From an uncultured Methanosarcinales archaeon (GTDB lineage Archaea; Nanobdellota; Nanobdellia; Woesearchaeales; WJKV01): 42,390 nucleotides of DNA. Under the pieces are notes generated by a model. It was not told the DNA's origin. It did not search any database and saw only the letters and a list, made by a program, of their open reading frames with translations. Below are positions 9,037-22,377 of the stretch, one piece after another; the first letter of the stretch is position 1; every line of letters begins with the position of its first letter. The translations under genes and the position numbers were made by a program. The stretch spans positions 29,225 through 71,614 of the forward strand of contig CAZNVD010000004.1 in assembly GCA_964576505.1 (NCBI GenBank), written 5' to 3'.

Positions 9037-9264
9037 ATGGTTGAATCTAAGTTAAAGCTATCAGTGGCAGAATTCTGGAAGGAATTTGATAATACTGTGA
9101 AAAATGGGAAACATAAAGAAATGAGCTTGAAGGAACTTGAAGCTCACATAGAAAGTATAAGAGGTTCAGTCAAGACAAAAACTACTGAAGAAGAATATGA
9201 AAGGGCACGAACTGAAGCATTTGAAGAGTTATATGGAGAATTATGTGACAAGAATTCAAAGTAA
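9037..9264 (+). CDS. Small charged hypothetical protein (antitoxin-like)
   Basis: 75 aa, ATG with TATA about 25 bp upstream; ends in ERARTEAFEELY; converges on the PIN gene. Confidence 0.6.
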   Translation: MVESKLKLSVAEFWKEFDNTVKNGKHKEMSLKELEAHIESIRGSVKTKTTEEEYERARTEAFEELYGELCDKNSK

Positions 9265-9687
9265 ATCTTCTGGTTTATGATAATTTGTAATGTCGAGTAA
9301 TTTCTTGAAATCATTGTCTCTTGTGACGAGAATAAGATTGTTATCTCTCGACAATATTGCGTGGAGTGCGTCGCCAATAGGAATTTTTCTTGTTATACTC
9401 AAGTGCGATGCTTCTTGTAGCTGTCCTCTGCCTGGAAATACTTTTAATATCTGATGTTTCAATGGATTAAGCATACTATTGATTGTATGATCAGCAACTC
9501 TTCTCCGTAATTCCTCTAATACAATATCAGACATAACTAAATTCTCTTTATTTGTAAGTATCTTCAAAACCAGCATTGAGGCATATTTTCCTAGAGGTTC
9601 ATCATGATATCCTTTCCTATCTTCGATGAGATCAATCCAGATAGAAGTATCAAAATAGTATTTATCAGTCACTATGGGTAAGGTCAA
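9256..9687 (-). CDS. PIN-domain (VapC-like) ribonuclease toxin
   Basis: YYFDTSIWID, VLEEL, GDALHA and LVTRDNDF PIN motifs; TTG start uncertain. Confidence 0.88.
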   Translation of the reverse strand: MTLPIVTDKYYFDTSIWIDLIEDRKGYHDEPLGKYASMLVLKILTNKENLVMSDIVLEELRRRVADHTINSMLNPLKHQILKVFPGRGQLQEASHLSITRKIPIGDALHAILSRDNNLILVTRDNDFKKLLDITNYHKPEDLL

Positions 9688-9718
9688 ATAGAGAATAAAA
9701 GATTAGCTGTGTTAAAAA

Positions 9719-9731
9719 TGGACTCAGTCCA
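9719..9731. promoter_or_regulatory. Palindrome TGGACT-C-AGTCCA upstream of BRE/TATA
   Basis: Perfect palindrome; TTTATAAA at 9748-9755; ATG at 9778. Confidence 0.75.
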
Positions 9732-9777
9732 AGTCTATTAGAAAATATTTATAAATGATGAGTGATACAATAGGAAC

Positions 9778-10073
9778 ATGACTGAACTGCTATTAACATG
9801 TATTATTAAAAATTAGACTGGCTTCTAAGACTTCAAACTTTTAGTGTGGTAATCACAATCAAGTCTAATTTTTAATCTGCGCAATCGCCCAAATGACAAG
9901 TCAATTGGCGATTGCGCATTATTAAGAAGGAACTCAGAGGAGGATATTCTTCGTTGTGTCCTGAGCTTGATATTGCAAGTAGAGGAGATTCTATTGAAGA
10001 AGCAAAAGAACACCTTAAGGAAGCTGTTGCTGGTCATCTCAAGGTAGCACAGGAAGAAGGAATGTTTATTTAG
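9778..10073 (+). pseudogene. hicB: HicB-family antitoxin interrupted by a 116-bp insertion
   Basis: MTELLLTC (9778-9801) joins IIKKELRGGYSSLCPELDIASRGDSIEEAKEHLKEAV... (9918-10073) to give a 59-aa HicB-fold protein. Confidence 0.85.
9802..9925. mobile_element. Double-hairpin insertion (family B copy 1) flanked by ATTATTAA direct repeats
   Basis: ATTATTAA at 9802-9809 and 9918-9925; stems ATTAAAAATTAGACT/AGTCTAATTTTTAAT and TGCGCAATCGCC/GGCGATTGCGCA. Confidence 0.75.
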
Positions 10074-10089
10074 TTGACATTTAGATAAG

Positions 10090-10515
10090 CTAAGAATCTT
10101 TCAACAACAAAAGAATTTTTCTTGTTGTAACAACAGGAATGCCTTGAAATTCTTTCAAAGTTAACAAATCTGCATCCCCACTTACAATGTAATCTGCCTT
10201 TGCACTTTCAGCACACTCTAGGAATTTGTTGTCATTTACATCTCTACAAATGTTTATCTTTATTGTTGGAGTTATAATTATGTGAGATAATGAAATTATT
10301 TTTTGCATAATTTGTGCTGGTGTTAATCCAGCATTTTTCATAACTTGATTGAACTTTGGTCTGTTAATTACGTCTTCCAACTCAGAAAGAATTTCTTTAG
10401 TAAGATAACATGTTGCCTTACCTTGTTCAATGCATTTAAGGAGTTCGGATTCATTTCCTCTCCAAAAGAAAGCTGAAATTATTGTGCTTGTATCCAGAAC
10501 TAATTTAATGGGCAT
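10090..10515 (-). CDS. PIN-family toxin (PIN_3/TIGR00305-like)
   Basis: LVLDTSTIISA, CRDVNDNKFLECA, ADYIVSGDADLL; coupled to the AbrB gene; alternative start 10524. Confidence 0.9.
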   Translation of the reverse strand: MPIKLVLDTSTIISAFFWRGNESELLKCIEQGKATCYLTKEILSELEDVINRPKFNQVMKNAGLTPAQIMQKIISLSHIIITPTIKINICRDVNDNKFLECAESAKADYIVSGDADLLTLKEFQGIPVVTTRKILLLLKDS

Positions 10516-10768
10516 TTCGTACATCCTTAATTGCCTTTATTAAGTCTGCCTTTGTCAATCCAGCCTGCTCTGCTGCTTTTTGTAATGGCTTTGCTATTTC
10601 GTCGAATGTTTTTTTAATTGCTGACTTATCAATTTTCTTTAAAATTACAGTTCCATCTTCGCCAAATATCATAAATTGATCTGACTTCTTAATTCCCATC
10701 TCTTTACGTAAAGGGGAGGGGATGACAATTTGTCCTTTTTCTGATATCTTAGTTAGTTCAACTTGCAT
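10505..10768 (-). CDS. AbrB/MazE/SpoVT-family antitoxin
   Basis: TKISEKGQIVIPSPLRKEMGI swapped-hairpin motif. Confidence 0.9.
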   Translation of the reverse strand: MQVELTKISEKGQIVIPSPLRKEMGIKKSDQFMIFGEDGTVILKKIDKSAIKKTFDEIAKPLQKAAEQAGLTKADLIKAIKDVRNAH

Positions 10769-13780: not shown

Positions 13781-14824
13781 TTAACCATTACAATTCGCTG
13801 TTGCTTGAACATCAAAGTTACCACCGTTTGGACTAAATTTAGCACAGAATGGATTACTAGCTGTATCTAAACCACAAATACAAGTGTCGCCTCCAGACAA
13901 GCTAACATCTAGGGTGTCACTTGTTCCTTCTCTAAATTTCCACTGATAATCTCCAGCAGCAATCTGTCTTGCCACTATTTCTCCCAAAATTGTGCCACCA
14001 GTAGCAGTTGCACGAAGTCCGACTAAATCGTTGTTTGATAATGTACCAGTATGTTCAATGTCTAAGCTTCTCTTAGTGTCAGCGTCCGCAGAAATAACAA
14101 CAGAAGCTGTGGCGGCAGTCACACCAGTTAACGCGGAGGATGCACCAGACCCAAGAAATACATTCCTTAAATTAGTATCATCATCATTTGATACAATAAC
14201 CGAAACCGTATCATCATTGTCTAATAAATTTAAAGTCCTAACATTACCAGTCGTTAATCCAAATGTAAAGGAACCAATAATGCTTTCTCCAACTGAATTG
14301 GTAATAGTATAAAAATCCCGACCAGTAAGCGTAGCAGCTTGCACACCAGTGGTCGTTAGCTTTTTATAAATATGGCGATAAGTCCCACTTGTTGCAGAAC
14401 CCGCATCCCTAACATTAGTAAATGAAGGATCTGTAGTTGTTGCCGAATCACCATTAATAGTTATCACACCAGTATCCCGCACAACATCAAAGTGAGACAC
14501 TGAGCCCTTACAAACAGCAAATTCTTTAGTACTTGCTTGAGTAGCCGGATTAGTACAACCAATAATAACAGCAGTTTGACCTGCTGCTAATGTGTAAATG
14601 TGAGTACTGTTCGTACCAACTGTCAAATTTCCTTTAATCGATACGTTCTTTGGAAAGATATAAGTTGCGTTTCTAAAAGATCCACCACGAACTTGAGTTG
14701 CATCGTGACCTGGGTTTGGTGTGTCACCCGGAGAAGCTATAACAAATATTGTGATTGCAAGCATAAACAACATTAAAGCAACTAAGAACGTACGACGATT
14801 AGATAGATCCAGTGTAAATCGCAT
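13781..14824 (-). CDS. Secreted/membrane-anchored Thr/Gly-rich beta-structured surface protein (PNPGH motif)
   Basis: N-terminal hydrophobic helix then SPGDTPNPGHDATQV; GAGGT RBS and TTATAAA upstream. Confidence 0.75.
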   Translation of the reverse strand: MRFTLDLSNRRTFLVALMLFMLAITIFVIASPGDTPNPGHDATQVRGGSFRNATYIFPKNVSIKGNLTVGTNSTHIYTLAAGQTAVIIGCTNPATQASTKEFAVCKGSVSHFDVVRDTGVITINGDSATTTDPSFTNVRDAGSATSGTYRHIYKKLTTTGVQAATLTGRDFYTITNSVGESIIGSFTFGLTTGNVRTLNLLDNDDTVSVIVSNDDDTNLRNVFLGSGASSALTGVTAATASVVISADADTKRSLDIEHTGTLSNNDLVGLRATATGGTILGEIVARQIAAGDYQWKFREGTSDTLDVSLSGGDTCICGLDTASNPFCAKFSPNGGNFDVQATANCNG

Positions 14825-15012
14825 AATAATTACCTCTTTTTTTTCTTGACTTCAGAATGTGAAGAACATTTTATAAGTATTTCGTTAGCAGAGTGTGGAG
14901 GATAATCGAATTAAATTATAAAATTAGCAAGATTTGATTTTATTTTTATCACTGGACTCAGTCCAAATTCTCGAGGACAAAGCATATAAAAACTAAAATT
15001 ACCAGAATGTAC
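14660..15012. repeat. Repeat unit R1 (5' end of surface-protein gene + divergent promoter + palindrome)
   Basis: The 47-bp block 14831-14877 is identical to 16123-16169 and has 4 mismatches to 17687-17733. Block 14955-14999 is near-identical to 16247-16291. Confidence 0.85.
14953..14965. promoter_or_regulatory. Palindrome TGGACT-C-AGTCCA
   Basis: Centre 24 bp before CATATAAA and 54 bp before ATG 15013. Confidence 0.75.
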
Positions 15013-15852
15013 ATGGACAAAAATAAAGCTCTCATAGTATTCCAAGACAAGAAGATAAGAAGAACATGGCATAATGAACAATGGTTTTTCTCTGTTGTTG
15101 ATATTGTTGAAATTCTCACAGATAGCCCAAATCCGAGAAGATATTGGTCAGACCTGAAAATAAAATTAATGAGCGAAGGATTTGAGTTGTACGATAAAAT
15201 CGTACAACTGAAATTAATGGCTTCTGATGGTAAGAACTATGAAACTGATTGCGCTTCTACTGAGAATATATTCAGGTTCATTCAATCTATCCCATCTCCA
15301 AAAGCAGAACCGTTCAAGAGATGGCTTGCTAAAGTTGGTTATGAACGTGTTCAAGAGATAGAAAATCCCGAGTTAGCTCAAGAACGAATGAAACAACTTT
15401 ACGAACAAAAAGGATATTCTAAACCATGGATTGATACCAGACTGCGAGGAATTGCAGTCAGACAGGATTTAACTGAAGAATGGATGAAAAGAGGAATAGA
15501 AAGTAACAATGATTTTGCGATTCTTACTTCAGAGATAGCTAAAGCTACTTTTGGGATGACTCCTACAGAATATAAAGAATTCAAAGGCCTAAAAAATCAG
15601 AATCTTAGAGATCACATGACTGATCTTGAACTCATATTTACCATGTTGGGTGAGGCGTCAACAGCTGAGCTTGAAAGAGTGAAAGATCCAAAAACATTCC
15701 CAGAACATCAAGAAGTAGCTCAAGATGGAGGAAATGTAGCAAAAACAGCCAAACTTGATCTTGAAAGCAAAACTAAAAGAAAAGTTGTTACAGATCAAAA
15801 TTATATAGATGAGCCAGAGAAAGAAAAAAGAAAGAGATTACAATCAAAATGA
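15013..15852 (+). CDS. Bro-N domain (phage antirepressor-like) protein
   Basis: IRRTWHNEQWFFSVVDIV, YWSDLK, IQSIPSPKAEPFKRWLA, NLRDHMTDLELIF; alternative start 15007. Confidence 0.9.
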   Translation: MDKNKALIVFQDKKIRRTWHNEQWFFSVVDIVEILTDSPNPRRYWSDLKIKLMSEGFELYDKIVQLKLMASDGKNYETDCASTENIFRFIQSIPSPKAEPFKRWLAKVGYERVQEIENPELAQERMKQLYEQKGYSKPWIDTRLRGIAVRQDLTEEWMKRGIESNNDFAILTSEIAKATFGMTPTEYKEFKGLKNQNLRDHMTDLELIFTMLGEASTAELERVKDPKTFPEHQEVAQDGGNVAKTAKLDLESKTKRKVVTDQNYIDEPEKEKRKRLQSK

Positions 15853-16031
15853 AGCAACCAAAAGCTTCAATAGCCATTAGGCCCTTGAACTGTTTCTAAA
15901 AGTACCAATAAGGACCCTGAGTTGCACAGTGACTTAAGATATCATCCGAAGAAGCAATAACAAATATTGTAATGTAAGCATGAAAAACATTAAAGCAACT
16001 AGAAATAAACGAAGATTGTAAATCGCATAAT

Positions 16032-16122
16032 CAATATATCAAAAAATGTCAATGTTGGAAATGAGCGAATTTTTTGATTATGAGAAAACAATCCAGGCAG
16101 AAATAAAGGTTATTGTTTTCTC
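16032..16122. mobile_element. Double-hairpin insertion in R2, absent from R1 and R3
   Basis: About 88 extra bp between ATG and RBS; stems ATCAAAAAAT/ATTTTTTGAT and GAGAAAACAAT/ATTGTTTTCTC. Confidence 0.6.
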
Positions 16123-16244
16123 TACCTCTTTTTTTTCTTGACTTCAGAATGTGAAGAACATTTTATAAGCATTTTGGTGGTAGATTATGTAGTTGAGTGT
16201 AAAATATACCAAGAAATATTCTATTACAATTTTCAGAACATAAT

Positions 16245-16257
16245 TAGACTGAGTCCA
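16245..16257. promoter_or_regulatory. Palindrome TAGACT-G-AGTCCA
   Basis: Centre 24 bp before AATATAAA and 55 bp before ATG 16306. Confidence 0.75.
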
Positions 16258-16305
16258 AATTCGCGAGGACAAAGAATATAAAAACTAAAATCATCAGATA
16301 AATAT

Positions 16306-17154
16306 ATGGACACGGAGAAAATCATAAAACTCAAAAAAACGTTTGAAGAATATGCTCGCGAGGCAGAAGGAGTGGAATTTTGGTTTGCGAGAGATTTAAT
16401 GAAACTTTTAGGATATGACAAATGGGAGAATTTTCTTAATGTAATCGAAAATGCGAAAATTGCGTGCACAAATTCAGGTTACGATGTAAATGACCATTTT
16501 CCCGAGGTCAGGAAAATGGTCGAAATTGGCTCCGGAGCAAAAAGAGAAATAGAAGACATAATGCTTACGAGGTATGCCAGTTATCTTATTGCACAAAATG
16601 GTGATCCACGAAAAGAAGAAATCGCTTTTGCTCAAAGTTACTTCGCCATTCAAACAAGAAAACAAGAATTAATAGAACAAAGAATTTCATTGCAGGAAAG
16701 ATTACAGGCCAGACATAAGTTAATGGCTGCGGAATCTGAGCTTTCAAAACTCATATATGAACGAGGAGTTGATAATAATGGATTTGCAAGAATAAGAAGC
16801 AGCGGAGACAAGGTACTATTTGGAGGACACACCACTGCCCGAATGAAGACCAAACTTGGAGTTCCCTCAAATAGACCTCTTGCCGATTTTCTTCCCACTA
16901 TAACAATAACTGCAAAAAATTTTGCCACAGAAATTACTAATTTCAATGTCAAGAAAAATAATCTTGAAAAAGAAGATAACATAACGAAGGAGCACATTCT
17001 AAATAATGCAGATGTAAGAGACTTGTTGATAAAACGAGGAATAAAACCTGAAGAACTACCTCCTGAGGAAGATATTAAAAGTATCGAGCAATCAATAAAG
17101 AAAGACGAATACAATATTGCTGCCAGTTCAAAGCACAAGAAAAAATTAAAATGA
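16306..17154 (+). CDS. dinD: DNA damage-inducible protein D family
   Basis: EFWFARDL..LLGY..WENF, LTRYASYLIAQNGDPRKEEIAFAQSYFAIQTRKQE, RPLADFLPT, GIKPEELPPEEDIK. Confidence 0.92.
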   Translation: MDTEKIIKLKKTFEEYAREAEGVEFWFARDLMKLLGYDKWENFLNVIENAKIACTNSGYDVNDHFPEVRKMVEIGSGAKREIEDIMLTRYASYLIAQNGDPRKEEIAFAQSYFAIQTRKQELIEQRISLQERLQARHKLMAAESELSKLIYERGVDNNGFARIRSSGDKVLFGGHTTARMKTKLGVPSNRPLADFLPTITITAKNFATEITNFNVKKNNLEKEDNITKEHILNNADVRDLLIKRGIKPEELPPEEDIKSIEQSIKKDEYNIAASSKHKKKLK

Positions 17155-17170
17155 TCAAAAACCTGAAGAA

Positions 17171-17440
17171 CTACTTAACGCCTAGTTTCTTTGCAATCTC
17201 TCGTACGGCCTGCTCCCTTACTTCATGAATCTGCTCATCAGTAATTTTCCTATCCTTCTTTGATCCTGCGCCATATGCATGCTCTAAGCGAAATAATGCC
17301 TCCTGTGTTTCCAAATCCTTCATTTTTTCTCTAATAGCTTCTCGAATAAATTCGGCTTTAGTAGAATACCGATGCTCTTTCATGATCTTTTCCATATCAT
17401 GAATGAAAGAGTCTTCAAATCTAACTGATATTGTTTCCAT
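17171..17440 (-). CDS. Ribbon-helix-helix (CopG/Arc/MetJ) protein, orphan antitoxin-like
   Basis: METISVRFE...YSTKAEFIREAIREK. Confidence 0.85.
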   Translation of the reverse strand: METISVRFEDSFIHDMEKIMKEHRYSTKAEFIREAIREKMKDLETQEALFRLEHAYGAGSKKDRKITDEQIHEVREQAVREIAKKLGVK

Positions 17441-17508
17441 TGTATTACTTTGTAAGACTTTGTGCTATTTAAATTTTTCTGTAAAATACACTATAAAGAT
17501 AATAATCA

Positions 17509-17868
17509 AGAGCAAAAAAAGCTTCAACAGATAGATCCATGAATTATTTCTAAAAGTACCAATAAGAACCTGAGTTCAGAGTGACTTAAGATATCATCCG
17601 AAGAAGCTAACAAATATTGTAACGTAAGCATGAAAAACATTAAAGCAATAAGAAATCATTGAAGATTGTAAATCGCACGGGCGATTTACCTCTTTTTTTT
17701 CTTGGTTTCAGAATGTTGAGAACATTTTATAAGATTTATGATAGTAGATTATGCACATAACAAAAAAATATTTCATAAAATTATTTTTTTGCAATCTTAA
17801 GAAGATTATTGGAATGAGTCCAATAATAGAGGAGATAAACATATTAAAGATAAAATGCCTTAGTAATT
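17509..17868. repeat. Repeat unit R3 with a second degraded 5' fragment of the surface-protein gene
   Basis: Close to R2 (TTTCTAAAAGTACCAATAAG, GTGACTTAAGATATCATCCGAAGAAGC, GTAAGCATGAAAAACATTAAAGCAA). Confidence 0.85.
17810..17822. promoter_or_regulatory. Palindrome TGGAAT-G-AGTCCA (extended ATTATTGGA...TCCAATAAT)
   Basis: Centre 24 bp before CATATTAAA and 53 bp before ATG 17869. Confidence 0.72.
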
Positions 17869-18201
17869 ATGATCTTTTATGTCACGAAAGCTTTACCGTT
17901 TGATAAACTAAGTAACAAATATTCAATTTCTGAAAAGAGAATTAAAAAACTGAGAAACAAATTACAAATTAATCCTTTTGTGGGAGACCTACTTCAAACA
18001 CCAATACTGAGAGAAAAACGCTTTGATGGAAAAAGAGTATATTTTCTTGTCTTTGCTGATGAAAAAGTCGTTATTCTTGTCGCAATAAGCAATAAAAAAG
18101 CTCAGCAAGAAACTATTGATAACATCATCAGCATGATTCCACAATATAAACAAACTGCAATAAATATTCGTGTTAAATTAGAACGTACTAGTCAAAAGTA
18201 G
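17869..18201 (+). CDS. RelE/ParE-like toxin
   Basis: Basic 110-aa protein with L..NPFVGD.L...LREKRFDGKRVYFLV....VVILVAIS pattern. Confidence 0.7.
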   Translation: MIFYVTKALPFDKLSNKYSISEKRIKKLRNKLQINPFVGDLLQTPILREKRFDGKRVYFLVFADEKVVILVAISNKKAQQETIDNIISMIPQYKQTAINIRVKLERTSQK

Positions 18202-18421
18202 TACTTCTGCCTTCTTGCAATTCAACCAATGTTTCCTTGAATGCATTAAGAATTTCCTCTTGTGAAGCATCTTTAGATTCCTTAACCTTTTTTTGTTTGC
18301 TGCGAAATACAGTAACTCTGCCTGCTTTAATATCTTCAAGAGACTGTTCGAATTGCTCGACAAGCTCCATATTAACACCATTCTTTGGATTCTTTTTCTT
18401 TTCTAAGACGGTTTGTGCCAT
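18188..18421 (-). CDS. Small antitoxin-like protein with a duplicated motif
   Basis: ELVEQFEQSLEDIKAGRVTVF and EILNAFKETLVELQEGRSTTF; own TATA and palindrome upstream. Confidence 0.7.
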   Translation of the reverse strand: MAQTVLEKKKNPKNGVNMELVEQFEQSLEDIKAGRVTVFRSKQKKVKESKDASQEEILNAFKETLVELQEGRSTTFD

Positions 18422-18468
18422 AAAGTAGTGGGTAATTTCAGTATTTATTAATCTTATTGCGGATTTCT

Positions 18469-18481
18469 TGGACTTAGTCCA
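18469..18481. promoter_or_regulatory. Palindrome TGGACT-T-AGTCCA
   Basis: Centre 54 bp upstream of the minus-strand ATG at 18421. Confidence 0.75.
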
Positions 18482-18496
18482 TGATTAAGGAGAGAA

Positions 18497-19990
18497 TTAA
18501 CTATTAGATACAGAATAATTTCTTGCCAATAACATGTGAGTCTTGGAAGCATTGGTTTGATTTAATTTCTGAAGGACTACTGAGACCTGAGCATGCGTTT
18601 GGGCTCTCGTAAAATTATCTGCAGGTAATTTCAAGGCCTGGGCTAAATATACCAGGGAATCTTCTGTTTTATTTAGCTGGAAGACAACAGATCCCAAATT
18701 ATGCCAGAGCAATGATGAGTCTTTGCCAAAGTATTTGGCAGCTTCTATATATGTTGCTTCTGCCTGAGTCCAGTTCTTCTGATCTGAATAGTATTTTCCA
18801 AGGTATAACCAGGTTTCATATGATTGGGGATTCTTTTGAAGTGAAGATTGCCAAAGTAAAGCATTGTCTAAATACAAGGCATTTGTATATAATGTCTGAA
18901 TACCAAAGAATACAGAAATAATAAGCAGGAAGATTACACTTAATGGAACAAGATATTTCTTTTTTCCAGCAACAAATTCAATTTCTGGCAATTTCTGCAA
19001 TAAATATGCAATAATGGTACTCAAAAAGAGAGATGGGATATAGAGCATTGTATCAGATAAAAGAGGACCAAGGGAAAGGAATGATGGTATAGAAATGATT
19101 AAAAGCATTGAAAGAAGGAAGAAGCCAATTGATTTTGATTTTCTCAATACGAAAACTGAAAGGAGGAATAAGATAACTAATGCAACAGCTGTAATAATTG
19201 CAGAAAAAGAGATTGCTGTTGGAACAGTAACAGTGTAATCAGGATTCAATGTCCAAGGCATTATGTAATGGAATAATGATAAGATAATGAGTTTTGATCT
19301 AACAACAAGATATAGACCAAATTGTGTTATGAGAATCTGCTTGAATAAGGCGGCTTGTTTTACTATTACAACTAGTAATGTAATTATGAAGGCTGAAGTC
19401 CAGAAAATTATTGTAGTAATGTATTTATGCGATTTGCTAACATATTTCTCATACAAAAGAATTGTCAAAGGTAATGCAAATGTTAAAGGATGGAGAGCGA
19501 AGGCTGCGAAATATAATGCAATTGATCCAAGTAATGTGTAGGGAATATATCTTACTTTTAATGAACCTTGTTTCAAGTACAAGAGCAAGGATAAAAGAAG
19601 GCAAAAGGTGGCTAAAAGCAAGGACGTGCCTGTTGGAACTGGAAGCACTGATGAAACTAAAGGATGAAGCATGAATAATAAAGAGGAAGCGACTGAGACA
19701 AACAGATTTGAAGTAATAATTGTGAGAATGATGAATAATAAGATTGTGTTTATTGTATGAAGAATTGTGTTTGGGAAATGAGGAAGGATGATTTCTGATG
19801 AGCCTAACCAGTTTGAAGCAGTAATATTGTATTTTTCTACAGATGAAATTTGCGATGAAGGAATAATTGTTGAGTTAAAGACAATAGTTGGTGAGCCTAA
19901 TGAGAAAGATTGAAGATGGGATGAATAAGCCTGCATCAGAATACCTAGAACTATGAACAGAATAAGGTAATACCATTTATTTGATTGCAT
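18497..19990 (-). CDS. Multi-TM membrane protein with C-terminal TPR (TMTC-like GT-C glycosyltransferase, divergent)
   Basis: Many hydrophobic helices, LH..N, LLFMLHP, PWTLNPDY, LYIPS, LWQSSLQKNPQS followed by TPRs; ATG 19990 preferred over 20101. Confidence 0.75.
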   Translation of the reverse strand: MQSNKWYYLILFIVLGILMQAYSSHLQSFSLGSPTIVFNSTIIPSSQISSVEKYNITASNWLGSSEIILPHFPNTILHTINTILLFIILTIITSNLFVSVASSLLFMLHPLVSSVLPVPTGTSLLLATFCLLLSLLLYLKQGSLKVRYIPYTLLGSIALYFAAFALHPLTFALPLTILLYEKYVSKSHKYITTIIFWTSAFIITLLVVIVKQAALFKQILITQFGLYLVVRSKLIILSLFHYIMPWTLNPDYTVTVPTAISFSAIITAVALVILFLLSVFVLRKSKSIGFFLLSMLLIISIPSFLSLGPLLSDTMLYIPSLFLSTIIAYLLQKLPEIEFVAGKKKYLVPLSVIFLLIISVFFGIQTLYTNALYLDNALLWQSSLQKNPQSYETWLYLGKYYSDQKNWTQAEATYIEAAKYFGKDSSLLWHNLGSVVFQLNKTEDSLVYLAQALKLPADNFTRAQTHAQVSVVLQKLNQTNASKTHMLLARNYSVSNS

Positions 19991-20143: not shown

Positions 20144-20149
20144 GTGTCT

Positions 20150-20407
20150 ATGACAATCACAATGGTTACAGTTTCGGAAAAAGGACAAATTGCAATACCT
20201 AATTCAATCAGAAGTAAAATTGGCATTAAAAAAGGAGATAAATTACTTTTAGTTCAAATAGATGATAAAATAATACTTGAGAAATCCAAACATATAGAAG
20301 ATAAGATGAAAGATAGCATGAAAGACATTTTATCATTAAGCGAAAAATCACTCAAGGAAGTTTGGGATAATGAAGAAGACGAGATTTGGAGCCAATATCT
20401 AAAATGA
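20150..20407 (+). CDS. AbrB/MazE/SpoVT-family antitoxin
   Basis: TVSEKGQIAIPNSIRSKIGIKKGDKL; C-terminal LSEKSLKEVWDNEEDEIW. Confidence 0.9.
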   Translation: MTITMVTVSEKGQIAIPNSIRSKIGIKKGDKLLLVQIDDKIILEKSKHIEDKMKDSMKDILSLSEKSLKEVWDNEEDEIWSQYLK

Positions 20408-20742
20408 ATGTCAAACAAAAAGAACTAGTTTTGCTGCGGTTTCCTTTTTCTAATTTGGAAGGAGGCAAAGTGAGACCTGCACTAGTTGTTTCAAATAACT
20501 TATTCAATAACAAATCTGATGATTGCATCATGATTCCACTTACAAGTGTGATTAAAGATGAACCATATTCAAGACTAATCAAACAAGAAGATTTGGAAAT
20601 CGGCAAATTACTCAAAACCAGCAGAGTGAGGACTGACAAAATATTCGCAGTTGAGAAAAATCTTATTGAAATGAAAATTGGAATATTACATAACGACTGT
20701 TTTAATAGCATTAGAAAACAAATATCCAGCATATTTGAATAA
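20404..20742 (+). CDS. PemK/MazF-family toxin
   Basis: LVLLRFPFSNLEGGKVRPALVVSN, PLTS, SRVRTDKI; ATGA overlap with the antitoxin. Confidence 0.92.
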   Translation: MNVKQKELVLLRFPFSNLEGGKVRPALVVSNNLFNNKSDDCIMIPLTSVIKDEPYSRLIKQEDLEIGKLLKTSRVRTDKIFAVEKNLIEMKIGILHNDCFNSIRKQISSIFE

Positions 20743-20751
20743 AAATAAAAT

Positions 20752-21387
20752 ATGGAACCTGTAGCAACCCAAGATAAGACATTCACATTCTATAATGAGA
20801 AGTATCAGGAGCATTATCATCATCCATTCGGAGCTGCGACTGAGGCTATTAAAAAGTTTGTAGAGCCAAGTTTGCCCCATATTAAAGATAAACAAAAGAT
20901 TGTTGTTTATGATGTATGCTTTGGGCTGGGATATAATGCAGCGGCTTTGCTTGATGCAATTGCAGGAACAGATAAGACTGTATTAGTGTATGGATTTGAG
21001 ATTGATGAAGAAGTGTTGGGGCAATTGAAACAATTAGAAACTCCGTTTCAATCGTTTCATAAGATTCTAGAAGCTATTGAGAAAGGAGAGTATAAAGATA
21101 AGAATGTTACAATAAAGATGGTTATCGGGGATGTGAGGTCAACATTGAAAGGTATTGAGAAGGCAGATGTTGTGTTTCATGATCCGTTTTCAGTGTCAAA
21201 GTGTCCTGAATTGTGGACACCTGAATTCTTTGCGTTATTGTATAAGAATATGAATAAAGGCGGAATGTTGACAACATATTCATGTGCGCGGAAAGTACGG
21301 GATGCAATGAGAAGTGCAGGGTTTATTGTTTCTGATGGACCAATTGTTGGAAGAAGGGGGCCGGCGACGGTGGCTGTGAAGGAGTAA
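20752..21387 (+). CDS. MnmC-like (MnmD domain) SAM-dependent tRNA methyltransferase
   Basis: TFYNEKYQEHYH, GA..EA..KFV.P, DVCFGLGYN, HDPFS..KCPELWT.EFF, LTTYS. Confidence 0.85.
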   Translation: MEPVATQDKTFTFYNEKYQEHYHHPFGAATEAIKKFVEPSLPHIKDKQKIVVYDVCFGLGYNAAALLDAIAGTDKTVLVYGFEIDEEVLGQLKQLETPFQSFHKILEAIEKGEYKDKNVTIKMVIGDVRSTLKGIEKADVVFHDPFSVSKCPELWTPEFFALLYKNMNKGGMLTTYSCARKVRDAMRSAGFIVSDGPIVGRRGPATVAVKE

Positions 21388-21389
21388 AT

Positions 21390-21710
21390 TTATGCTGCTA
21401 TTGAATTTTCTTCTTCTAATGACTTTAATTTTTCTATAACCAGATCATCATACAATTCTATCAATTGCTTCGCAGCAATATTATTTTGATTGATTTTATA
21501 TAATGTTGCTCTTCCAATTTTTCTGGTAATTGTAATAACACCGAGATGTAAAAGCTTAGGAATTTCTGTATTTAATGTTCCCCAGCTTACACCTGCGTTA
21601 ATTAAATCAGTCAAGGTGTAATCTAACTCTCTTCCTTCTATAAAGAACTGAAGAATTCTCATCCTAGGATTGTCTCCAACATAATCTAGGAAAATTGATT
21701 CAGATTTCAT
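21390..21710 (-). CDS. Winged-helix DNA-binding protein
   Basis: GDNPRMRILQFFIEGRELDY, AGVSWGTL, TRKIGRATLYKIN. Confidence 0.75.
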   Translation of the reverse strand: MKSESIFLDYVGDNPRMRILQFFIEGRELDYTLTDLINAGVSWGTLNTEIPKLLHLGVITITRKIGRATLYKINQNNIAAKQLIELYDDLVIEKLKSLEEENSIAA

Positions 21711-21802
21711 ATATCTAAGTAAAAATAAAGAATATAGAGTATTTAATTAATTTAATTCCGAAAAGTTTATATATTATATCAGAGTATAACTAAAGTATAA
21801 CT

Positions 21803-22012
21803 ATGGCAAGCGAAGTTGTTTTGAGGAAATGGGGAAATTCATTGGGAGTAGTTCTACCAAAAGAACTTGTTGAAAACAAAGGACTCCATGAAAAAGAAGT
21901 AATTTTAATCGAAGTTGTAAAGGAAGCTAACCTGAAGGATGTATTTGGAAGTCTTAAGAGAAAAATGTCAGGTCAGGAATTTAAGGATCTAGTTAAGCAA
22001 GGGTGGGAATGA
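21803..22012 (+). CDS. AbrB/MazE-family antitoxin
   Basis: LRKWGNSLGVVLPKE; preceded by direct repeat AGTATAACTA x2. Confidence 0.9.
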   Translation: MASEVVLRKWGNSLGVVLPKELVENKGLHEKEVILIEVVKEANLKDVFGSLKRKMSGQEFKDLVKQGWE

Positions 22013-22377
22013 AAACCTTCTTTTTTGACACTTATGCTTTCTTTGAGATAATAGAAGGAAATCCTTCATACAATAAATATTCTGAACATGTTGCAATTGT
22101 TACCACCAAACTTCAACTCATGGAATTGTATTATGGATTACTCAAGTTATATGGTAAGCATGAAGCTGAATTTATGTACGATCGATTTGTGGGCTCCGCA
22201 GTTGAGATATCTAATGAAGAAATTAAAGCTGCGATGGATTTCAGACACAGGCATTCTAAAAAGAAATTCTCGTACATTGATTGCACAGGGTATGTATCAG
22301 CACAAAGACGGGGGATTATGTTTCTCACAGGAGACAAAGCATTCGATGGTATTCCAGGAGTAGAATTTGTGAAATAA
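22009..22377 (+). CDS. PIN-domain (VapC) toxin
   Basis: FFDTYAFFE, LMELYY, FSYIDC.GY, FLTGDKAF; ATGA overlap. Confidence 0.9.
   Translation: MKTFFFDTYAFFEIIEGNPSYNKYSEHVAIVTTKLQLMELYYGLLKLYGKHEAEFMYDRFVGSAVEISNEEIKAAMDFRHRHSKKKFSYIDCTGYVSAQRRGIMFLTGDKAFDGIPGVEFVK

Follow-up and report, generated by a model that had tools for sequence, protein, structure and literature searches.

The spread of single-gene defence systems in tiny symbiotic archaea is not understood, and there are no obvious plasmids, transposons or integrases beside such genes. A 42,390-nucleotide stretch from the genome of an uncultured archaeon, referred to here as the window, raises the question in compact form. Within it, the start of one gene and the divergent promoter region next to it occur three times in direct orientation, as copies that we call R1, R2 and R3, and between these copies lie two small cassettes, one with a Bro-N/DinD-like gene and the other with a gene for DinD (DNA damage-inducible protein D). 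How did two such cassettes come to be enclosed by copies of the start of their neighbour? We judge the chances to be about even that they are candidate-defence cassettes inserted successively beside an orphan gene for a putatively secreted protein, each with a long target duplication. Together with its parallels elsewhere, the locus points to one concrete route of spread, namely gene-end insertion with long target duplication, in which the host gene is kept alive and dated 'scars' are left behind. The significance lies in the recurrence of the signature around a very abundant gene family and not in this locus alone.

Three copies of a gene start at one locus

The repeated start belongs to a gene on the minus strand (13781..14824) that encodes an orphan protein of 347 amino acids with an N-terminal hydrophobic anchor or signal (MRFTLDLSNRRTFLVALMLFMLAITIFVIASPG). 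Because of this hydrophobic N-terminus, we provisionally regard the product as a surface or secreted protein. It matched no family in Pfam, NCBIfam, PADLOC or PHROGs, a search of 5.8 billion proteins returned only its own fragment, and 40 relatives gave one weak N-terminal match and nothing else. Its neighbours in a protein atlas all scored below 0.9, and none was reliable.

Repeat search, MAFFT alignment and whole-genome BLAST all found three direct copies at this one locus, with boundaries within a few bases of those proposed in an initial annotation of the sequence. Read on the plus strand, the unit holds the first ~55 codons of the gene, a Shine-Dalgarno (SD) and TATA block, a spacer and an 11-nucleotide palindrome. 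In R1 (14660..14964), the live copy, codons 1-55 occupy 14660-14824, the SD and TATA block 14829-14877, the spacer 14878-14953 and the palindrome, GGACTCAGTCC, 14954-14964. The other two copies are dead. R2 (15853..16256) consists of a frameshifted 5' fragment on the minus strand (15853-16027), the SD and TATA block (16121-16169), and then the spacer and the palindrome AGACTGAGTCC (16246-16256). In R3 (17515..17821) the frameshifted 5' fragment, also on the minus strand, lies at 17515-17677, the SD and TATA block at 17685-17733 and, after the spacer, the palindrome GGAATGAGTCC at 17811-17821. A genome search for further copies, as the initial annotation had suggested, yielded none beyond this locus: the BLAST matches of R1 against the 1.31-Mb genome (E = 5.3e-33, 1.1e-23 and 3.1e-15) all fell here, the gene-fragment part of the unit had no further copy across the 81 contigs, and two weak matches elsewhere in the genome covered the palindrome-TATA part only.

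Segment by segment, the identities agree with the mosaic similarity that had been described at the outset. The gene fragments of R2 and R3 are 92% identical, compared with 69-81% for R1 and R2 and 69-75% for R1 and R3. The promoter block matches at 47/49 positions between R1 and R2 and at 44/49 for both R1-R3 and R2-R3; it includes the perfect 47-nucleotide identity between R1 and R2 noted earlier (14831-14877 = 16123-16169). The spacer is 51% identical in R1-R2, 50% in R1-R3 and 68% in R2-R3, and the block running from the palindrome through the TATA box is 86% identical in R1-R2, 54% in R1-R3 and 53% in R2-R3.

That only the first copy is intact is borne out by the decay of the other two. 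R2 and R3 have a common left boundary, or truncation point, and both carry a 13-nucleotide deletion and a 1-nucleotide deletion that shift the frame at identical places; R3 has one extra shift. These common frameshifts mean that at least one event copied a dead fragment, or that gene conversion followed. An insertion of ~86 nucleotides (16035-16120), between the pseudo start codon and the SD block, is unique to R2 and has no second copy in the genome. Three ancient paralogous surface genes, each truncated separately, are ruled out as the source of the copies by the common truncation point, the common frameshifts and the absence of paralogs. The idea that the array is a reservoir for swapping the variable 3' part of the surface gene was not upheld, as the dead copies are 5' stubs of ~55 codons and the genome holds no alternative 3' segment.

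Several terminator-like sites were observed in the copies. A hairpin with a T run at 15850-15869 (minus strand) coincides exactly with the outer end of the R2 stub, another at 17668-17689 (plus strand) lies between the R3 pseudo start codon and its SD block, and each of R1, R2 and R3 has a T8 run on the plus strand.

The cassettes carry two members of one candidate defence family

Cassette 1 (14965..15852, plus strand) is composed of a TATA block at ~14978-15001 and the Bro-N/DinD-like gene. The spacing and the N-termini of homologs suggest that the true start of this gene is likely 15013 (MDKNKALIVFQ), 48 nucleotides past the palindrome. The product matched Pfam Bro-N (4.7e-10), phrog_15286 (2.8e-94) and, over its full length, the PADLOC profile PDLC04920 of family PDC-S13 (3.1e-121; residues 3-276 on profile positions 1-276 of 286). 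It is not a member of the DinD family NF008573 of NCBIfam, for which it scored 21 bits against a cut-off of 242. A peptide-pattern scan found no relatives in viral contigs, although PHROGs families match.

Cassette 2 (16257..17514) contains a TATA block, the DinD gene (16306-17154, plus strand) and a ribbon-helix-helix (RHH) gene on the minus strand (17171-17440) with its own upstream AT-rich region. The DinD assignment holds by NF008573 (7.2e-107; 357 bits against the cut-off of 242), and the protein also matched, over its full length, the PADLOC profile PDLC04919 of PDC-S13 (3.6e-116; residues 1-277 on profile positions 1-279 of 281). By these profile matches, both cargo proteins are assigned to the PADLOC candidate defence family PDC-S13; their identity to each other is 22%. 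No test of PDC-S13 antiviral activity was found among the papers listed by a literature search, and the terms 'PDC-S13', 'DinD' and 'Bro-N' do not occur in the main text of 10.1101/2024.01.29.577857 or of PMC12988326. The RHH protein gave weak matches of NikR, CdrS and ParD type, all below cut-off, and the R3 promoter copy is oriented into its gene.

We also modelled the cargo 1 protein (15013-15849) with AlphaFold from a 34-sequence alignment, and obtained a mean pLDDT of 81. The only significant fold matches in the Protein Data Bank (PDB) were to DdrC, a DNA-damage response protein of Deinococcus radiodurans (Foldseek E 4e-6 to 3e-4, with TM-scores of only 0.30-0.49). No nuclease or recombinase fold was seen in the model, and sequence searches with both cargos against PDB chains gave nothing below E 0.4. 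On the predicted structure, PDC-S13 is possibly a DdrC-like, DNA-damage-linked family.

Beyond R3 lies a plus-strand segment (17822..18201) with its own TATA block and a RelE/ParE-like gene (17869-18201). Its match to TIGR02683 is below cut-off (0.0045; 17.3 against 62.85 bits), and a language-model atlas placed it at 0.96 to clusters automatically named RelE. The TATA block of this gene is unlike those after R1 and R2 (53-54%), and the gene is probably the original divergent neighbour. The small open reading frame (ORF) next to it, of 77 amino acids (18188..18480, minus strand), is convergent and overlapping, not co-directional as a type II toxin-antitoxin pair would need. A fourth palindrome (18470-18480) lies 48 nucleotides upstream of its ATG, and no fourth copy of the gene fragment is present there.

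The cargo labels of the initial annotation hold, those of RHH and RelE on weak matches. The cargo is less varied than it suggested: the Bro-N and DinD genes both belong to PDC-S13 and are recurrent neighbours in other genomes. The distance between the cargos, at 22% identity against 70-96% for the repeats, means that the cargo arrived separately or was replaced. A single old triplication, which had been raised as an explanation of all the differences, fails on the same comparison.

The palindrome is a genome-wide promoter element

The palindrome, of the form (TT)GGACTSAGTCC(AA), is present in the unit together with a TATA box, as had been noted, but it is not specific to the unit. Its exact form GGACTNAGTCC occurs 6 times in the genome against 0.57 expected. 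In the window, sites lie at 9720-9730, 14954-14964, 16246-16256, 17811-17821 and 18470-18480, and further sites are on contigs C1, C2, C6, C7, C11, C17, C20, C28 and C33 of the same genome. When sites with at most one mismatch were paired with start codons, 17 of the 29 site/ATG rows had an ATG 47-49 nucleotides downstream and a TATA box in the interval. The 17 ORFs downstream of palindromes that we scanned are a mixture of housekeeping or repair types (a Rad51/KaiC-type ATPase, a NUDIX protein, a class I Tyr/Trp-tRNA synthetase, a TctA transporter) and toxin-antitoxin types (MazE, VapB and DUF4258, with PBECR2-like and PIN matches below Pfam cut-offs).

The palindrome is a genome-wide promoter-proximal operator, and its sites may mark a regulon that responds to stress or DNA damage. 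In front of each cargo gene, 47-49 nucleotides from the ATG, are a palindrome and a TATA box, and the RHH gene is on the opposite strand. The palindrome-TATA blocks are most likely the cargo genes' own promoters, an assignment that explains why R1 and R2 are alike in this block and R3 is not. Because it keeps the same spacing to the ATG at many unrelated promoters, those of housekeeping genes among them, the palindrome is rejected as a recombination site. A related motif, CACTGGACA followed after about 14 nucleotides by TATA, stands before the Bro-N gene in 10 of 18 copies taken from other genomes, and before DinD in L042, L043, L045 and L050 (numbers with L denote loci in our comparison).

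Flanking repeats recur around DinD and Bro-N genes elsewhere

Relatives of both cargos are widespread. In a species-level genome collection, 546 of 599 pattern-matched stretches encode a DinD relative; the 80 loci kept, at 61-78% identity, are spread over DPANN archaea, methanogens and many bacterial phyla. The Bro-N family of cargo 1 occurs, at E <= 1e-10, in 191 of 401 genomes of the order (a tally that includes the unpublished genomes G215 and G319), with about 57-74% identity among the matches listed. The top count per genome is at least 6-7 matches, in genomes of 1-2 Mb, and internal stops interrupt some of the copies. In 5 of the 80 kept loci, the gene immediately upstream of DinD is a Bro-N homolog, in many cases truncated, which makes the two cargos a recurrent neighbour pair. 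Truncated Bro-N stubs precede DinD in L037, L042 and L046, and tandem Bro-N/Bro-N pairs are found in L118, L127, L143 and L144. No RHH homolog adjoins DinD in the 80 other DinD loci. In L127 and L180, the Bro-N gene overlaps the end of an Eco57I-type restriction-modification (RM) methylase gene by 4 nucleotides.

We then compared the 350 nucleotides upstream with the 350 nucleotides downstream of each gene, and counted local scores of at least 45 as flanking repeats. Repeats were found at 9 of 76 DinD loci (77 were run; L062 was dropped as an indexing artefact, and L038, with a score of 34, was not counted) and at 7 of 47 Bro-N loci (5/29 in a first sample and 2/18 in a second). Combined, 16 of 123 copies, or about one in eight, have a flanking repeat. 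Among other ORFs of at least 200 amino acids in the DinD loci, which served as the control, 5 of 220 had a repeat, and all five lie beside DinD arrays. The Fisher p-values against this control (0.002 for DinD and 0.001 for Bro-N) overstate the case, because related genomes are not independent. With the Bro-N family in nearly half of the genomes of its order and about one copy in eight bearing duplications, these genes constitute a large natural data set for the mechanism.

The duplicated piece varies in kind. In three archaeal loci it is the 5' end of the neighbouring gene: the 42-nucleotide repeat of L067 is the ATG and 13 codons of a downstream PD-(D/E)XK nuclease gene, and in L042 and L050 the repeat is the promoter and first 12 codons of a downstream gene that is glycosyltransferase-like by its N-terminus only. 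The repeat of L127 (52 nucleotides) is the last ~17 codons of the Eco57I-type methylase gene, and that of L039 is a 70-nucleotide promoter-like segment. The host genes of L042 and L050 are orthologous, with 82% amino acid identity, yet carry different arrays. L042 has a stub, a Bro-N fragment, a second stub, a second Bro-N fragment and DinD before the intact gene, whereas L050 has a stub, DinD, a stub and a Fic gene before it. The two truncated copies in L050 are closer to the L042 gene start than to L050's own. The upstream repeat ends 82-89 nucleotides before the DinD start in 6 of the 9 repeat-positive loci (L050, L060, L067, L071, L075 and L098). We did not find a conserved leader travelling with DinD: the ~85 nucleotides between repeat and ATG show no likeness across phyla, and hairpins occur in several of them.

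The window's own genome holds a clean single-cassette case of the same insertion signature, L181. Here a 51-nucleotide repeat (46/51; C17:17716-17766 and 18473-18523) is the 3' end of a DUF4440/SnoaL-like gene, and the cassette is a PIN-domain gene and a 75-amino-acid ORF on the minus strand with its own AT-rich promoter region.

Two further repeat arrangements were seen in these surveys. In another archaeal genome, a perfect 55-nucleotide promoter-like direct repeat (L099:412-466 and 1866-1920) surrounds a gene of 440 amino acids with Schlafen/AlbA_2, HATPase_c_4 and HTH domains, and this Schlafen-type gene lies directly upstream of a Bro-N and DinD pair. A conserved hairpin element (CGAAGAGCTTTA ... 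TAAAGCTCTTCG) is present in at least 14 copies in the window's own genome, frequently with a second hairpin (TATAGTGGAGGAA...) behind it, at C2:2370, C3:58235 and 70341, C5:54958, C6:4811 and 6017, C7:28356 and 30429, C8:39291, C10:12202, C13:1665 and 11159, C17:20782 and C38:4237. Pairs of these copies bracket gene groups of 1-4 kb; there is no copy in the window.

The serial capture at a hotspot proposed in the initial annotation is supported in outline, because the architecture recurs at other host genes (L042, L050 and L067) and the arrays differ at one of them. The accompanying idea, that each capture regenerates a fresh copy of the live gene, is contradicted by the frameshifts common to R2 and R3. 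The variation in unit number and cargo that the initial annotation had proposed to look for was seen between genomes at the host gene of L042 and L050; no relative of the present locus was found in the genomes and contigs searched.

Assembly support and surroundings of the array

The genome occurs in groundwater metagenome runs; its assembly (1.31 Mb in 81 contigs, with the window on contig C4) is rated 97% complete, with a GC content of 0.31-0.42 and archaeal-type TATA promoters. A scan for bacterial sigma-70 promoters gave chance-level results (18 sites against 18.7 expected), as expected for an archaeon. Logan contigs with 100% identity bridge R2 to DinD (16202-16789), RHH to R3 (17114-17604) and R3 to the RelE-like gene (17670-17916). 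These contigs come from four runs of one study, possibly including the source sample, and are short and of low depth; none spans the whole array. Their independent support is weak, since the runs may include the source sample. No alternative joints, circles or variants were seen in them, contigs of this depth being uninformative on rare forms. Composition is even across the region. Misassembly, the other explanation considered at the outset, is unlikely: outside the 47-nucleotide block the copies diverge by 8-30%, and the identical bridging contigs showed only the assembled joints.

The stretch from 9 to 22.4 kb is rich in PIN, MazE and MazF genes, with a PIN gene at 9256-9687, a PIN_3 gene with MazE at 10090-10768, a MazE-MazF pair at 20144-20742 and a MazE-PIN pair at 21803-22377. 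Such toxin-antitoxin-dense surroundings (9037-10768 and 20144-22377) are consistent with a variable accessory region.

No recombination machinery at the locus

No tyrosine recombinase, integrase or transposase family was matched among the scanned ORFs of the window. A search of the whole genome, another step suggested by the initial annotation, found two tyrosine recombinases, both away from the locus. The one on contig C15 is XerA (NF040815, 240.8 bits against a cut-off of 220; integron-integrase TIGR02249, 209.6 against 265), and the one on C25 is divergent, with weak matches only. Single-strand DNA folds of both strands, computed without a dedicated attC model, showed no attC-like fold common to the three units (z from +1.06 to -2.59). 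All three copies do share a conserved core (47/49 between R1 and R2, 44/49 against R3), which is also the live promoter of the target gene, and there is no local integrase. The locus is not an integron: it has neither IntI nor an attC fold, and its genes have their own promoters and mixed orientation, so that the likeness to an integron array drawn in the initial annotation stands as an analogy only. Between 9 and 23 kb no Rfam family was matched. The locus is also not a tRNA-targeting island, because a scan found no tRNA in the window.

A model of stacked insertion

We propose that the cassettes, each with its own operator and TATA promoter, entered the divergent promoter region adjoining the target gene. 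Each insertion would have left a direct duplication of ~290-400 nucleotides, from codon ~55 through the SD and TATA block and the spacer to the palindromic operator. The copy joined to the gene body (R1) would stay functional, and the distal copies R2 and R3 would become dead 5' stubs. The Bro-N cassette would have come first and created one stub, which decayed; the DinD and RHH cassette would have come second and duplicated the decayed stub into R2 and R3. Duplication of an already decayed stub would explain why R2 and R3 have the same boundary and frameshifts. The 47-nucleotide identity of R1 and R2 may be due to later gene conversion between adjacent copies, and the RelE-like gene beyond R3 would be the original neighbour. 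Two routes could account for the insertions: break repair that generates the duplication de novo, or Campbell-type integration of a small circle already provided with a target copy.

Several observations weigh against this model. The divergence of R2 and R3 is uneven, with 92% identity in the gene fragment and 68% in the spacer, a pattern not expected from a single neutral duplication. Two cassettes with nearly the same boundaries fit a site- or homology-directed process better than random breaks. Among the 123 family members, 107 have no flanking repeat, and the repeats of L071 and L075 are multi-copy palindromic intergenic elements, not target duplications. The bridging contigs are short, of low depth and possibly from the source sample, and show no population variation. 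Finally, no empty site was found, nor a relative with the target gene, the unit or the synteny. A search with the unit DNA over 400 genomes of the order gave short matches at chance level and nothing else, a 27-nucleotide degenerate pattern did not find it in metagenome contigs, and no locus syntenic for the flanking kinase and TPR-membrane genes was found in relatives. Because there is no close relative, an empty site could not be shown, and it is from the anatomy of the filled locus that we infer the mechanism and the order of events. The model leaves unexplained the uneven divergence of R2 and R3, the ~86-nucleotide insertion in R2 and the recurring distance of 82-89 nucleotides between repeat and DinD.

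The main rival leads to the same product. It is tandem accretion of two related non-autonomous elements, small circles with cargo and a vestigial copy of the target, which would integrate by site-specific or homologous crossover in the promoter block or palindrome with a recombinase acting in trans; R1 would then be attL-like, R2 an element-element junction and R3 attR-like. The arms fit this picture: on the left, R2 and R3 resemble each other (92%) but not R1, and on the right, in the palindrome-TATA block, R1 and R2 resemble each other (86%) but not R3. Common frameshifts in R2 and R3 are expected if the elements carry a dead fragment with them, no part of the three copies is better conserved than the central block (44-47 of 49), XerA and a divergent tyrosine recombinase are encoded on other contigs, and the truncated copies of L050 are nearer to the L042 gene start than to that of L050 itself. 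However, there is no recombinase at or near the locus, no copy of the unit elsewhere in the genome or in the collections searched, and the spacer breaks the simple arm pattern, being most alike in R2 and R3 (68%) and not in R1 and R2 (51%). Moreover, the repeats seen in other genomes consist throughout of local host sequence, 31-400 nucleotides long and varied in kind (5' ends, 3' ends and promoters), and this variation in length and kind argues against a fixed att site borne by an element. We consider accretion unlikely. An ordinary tandem duplication of stub, promoters and downstream gene, followed by replacement of the cargo with foreign Bro-N and DinD alleles and by gene conversion, is a good deal less plausible. 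Tandem duplication is common, the two cargos are distantly homologous, share one architecture and have nearly identical promoters, and other genomes have both Bro-N/Bro-N pairs (L118, L127, L143 and L144) and truncated Bro-N genes before DinD (L037, L042 and L046). Against it, extra replacement steps are required, the RHH gene in cassette 2 and the RelE-like gene after R3 are unrelated, and the pattern of stub, cassette and gene with a single DinD at unrelated host genes (L067 and L039) is left unexplained.

We regard as very unlikely that the array is a programmed system under selection, whether its stubs and promoter copies act through antisense or leader transcripts on toxic cargo or it is an integron-like platform for a dedicated recombinase that has escaped recognition. 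The promoter block has been kept at 90-96% identity in the dead copies while the spacer drifted to 50-68%, terminator-like oligo-T and hairpin sites occur at the stub ends (15869-15850, minus strand, and 17668-17689), the R3 promoter copy is directed into the RHH gene, and one host gene carries arrays of different cargo (L042 and L050). Yet the fragments are frameshifted, the three units have no attC-like fold in common, XerA, the best tyrosine recombinase, does not reach the cut-off of the integron-integrase model, and the cassettes have their own promoters and mixed orientation. An assembly artefact, with chimeric or mis-joined repeats in a metagenome bin, is barely credible: the assembly is fragmented into 81 contigs and the public contigs are short, with none spanning the array, but copies that differ by 8-30% and by insertions and deletions are not collapsible repeats, the three junctions are bridged at 100% identity in separate runs with no alternative joints, and the composition is even.

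A wider reading of the stacked-insertion model is one that we hold to be improbable, at a level between accretion and tandem duplication. DPANN-type archaea, in which recognisable mobile elements are few, might build recombinase-free, integron-like arrays of defence cassettes at gene ends, duplicating the target each time, and PDC-S13 may drive or exploit the insertion; such arrays would be made of single-gene cassettes (PDC-S13 Bro-N/DinD, Fic, Schlafen-like and PIN) at ordinary gene ends. If this were true, PDC-S13, whose nearest predicted fold is the DNA-break-binding DdrC, might promote or exploit the break repair by which it is inserted, and its members would then be self-spreading genes.

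Comparison with known systems

Integrative elements that bring a replacement gene end and accrete in tandem are known from tRNA-gene islands, from e14 and phage 21 at icd, and from integrative and conjugative elements and the related cis-mobilizable elements (ICE/CIME). Our locus resembles them in having an intact gene at one end and truncated pseudo-copies at the element boundaries, in the reuse of one site, and in a mosaic of attL, junction and attR type. It differs in that no integrase is near, the cassettes are 0.9-1.3 kb, the target is a 5' end and promoter rather than a 3' end or tRNA, and the repeat is 290-400 nucleotides long and only 70-96% identical.

Archaeal integrons have been reported by Ghaly et al. 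(2022; 10.1101/2022.02.06.479319). The locus is similar to integrons in general in that single-gene accessory or defence cassettes are arrayed at one site, with toxin-antitoxin or defence-like cargo as in chromosomal integrons. In contrast to integrons, it has no IntI, attI or attC-like sites, its boundaries are duplicated host gene starts, and its cassettes, which face both ways, are each equipped with a promoter. With regard to the cargo, PADLOC defence candidates were identified through 'guilt by embedding' in the preprint of Payne et al. (2024; 10.1101/2024.01.29.577857), and a study of the diversity and evolution of archaeal immune strategies (PMC12988326) describes DPANN archaea as enriched in single-gene PADLOC candidates (PDCs) and SoFic. 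Our locus agrees with this work in that both cargos match PDC-S13, and the Bro-N genes of L127 and L180, directly after an Eco57I-type methylase, lie in or at an RM locus. Flanking target duplications, however, are not discussed in the main text of these papers.

The closest parallel is found among bacterial RM genes. Insertion of RM genes with long target duplication was reportedly described by Nobusato et al. in 2000.

In the account of Furuta, Abe and Kobayashi (2010; PMC2853133), bacterial RM genes are flanked by long target duplications, from 46 bp to 417/423 bp, with no mobility genes; flanking repeats are significantly in excess over average genes, and no archaeal case survived the selection described there. 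That paper leaves the mechanism open, suggests a link to DNA breakage, proposes invasion, amplification through the repeats and release, and gives the enzymology as unknown as of 2010. Among the titles and abstracts listed by a literature search on 'long target duplication', none concerned such archaea or DinD/Bro-N. As in the RM cases described, we see small defence-type units, no mobility gene and local direct repeats of variable length that often overlap gene ends; the inserts (~0.9 and ~1.26 kb) are below 20 kb, the repeats (~290-400 nucleotides) are above 30 bp, and there are no other mobile-element genes. The differences from that description are a cargo of PDC-S13, Fic, Schlafen-like and PIN genes rather than RM genes, a DPANN-type archaeal host, the stacking of two events as an array, and a duplicated piece made up of a gene 5' end and a bidirectional promoter. 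Long target duplication is defined by an empty site in a relative, whereas the present locus is known in its filled form only. As its cargo is PDC-S13 and RHH and not RM, the locus is at most a variant of this type of insertion, and it is best filed as an archaeal defence-cassette version of long-target-duplication insertion, stacked into a small array.

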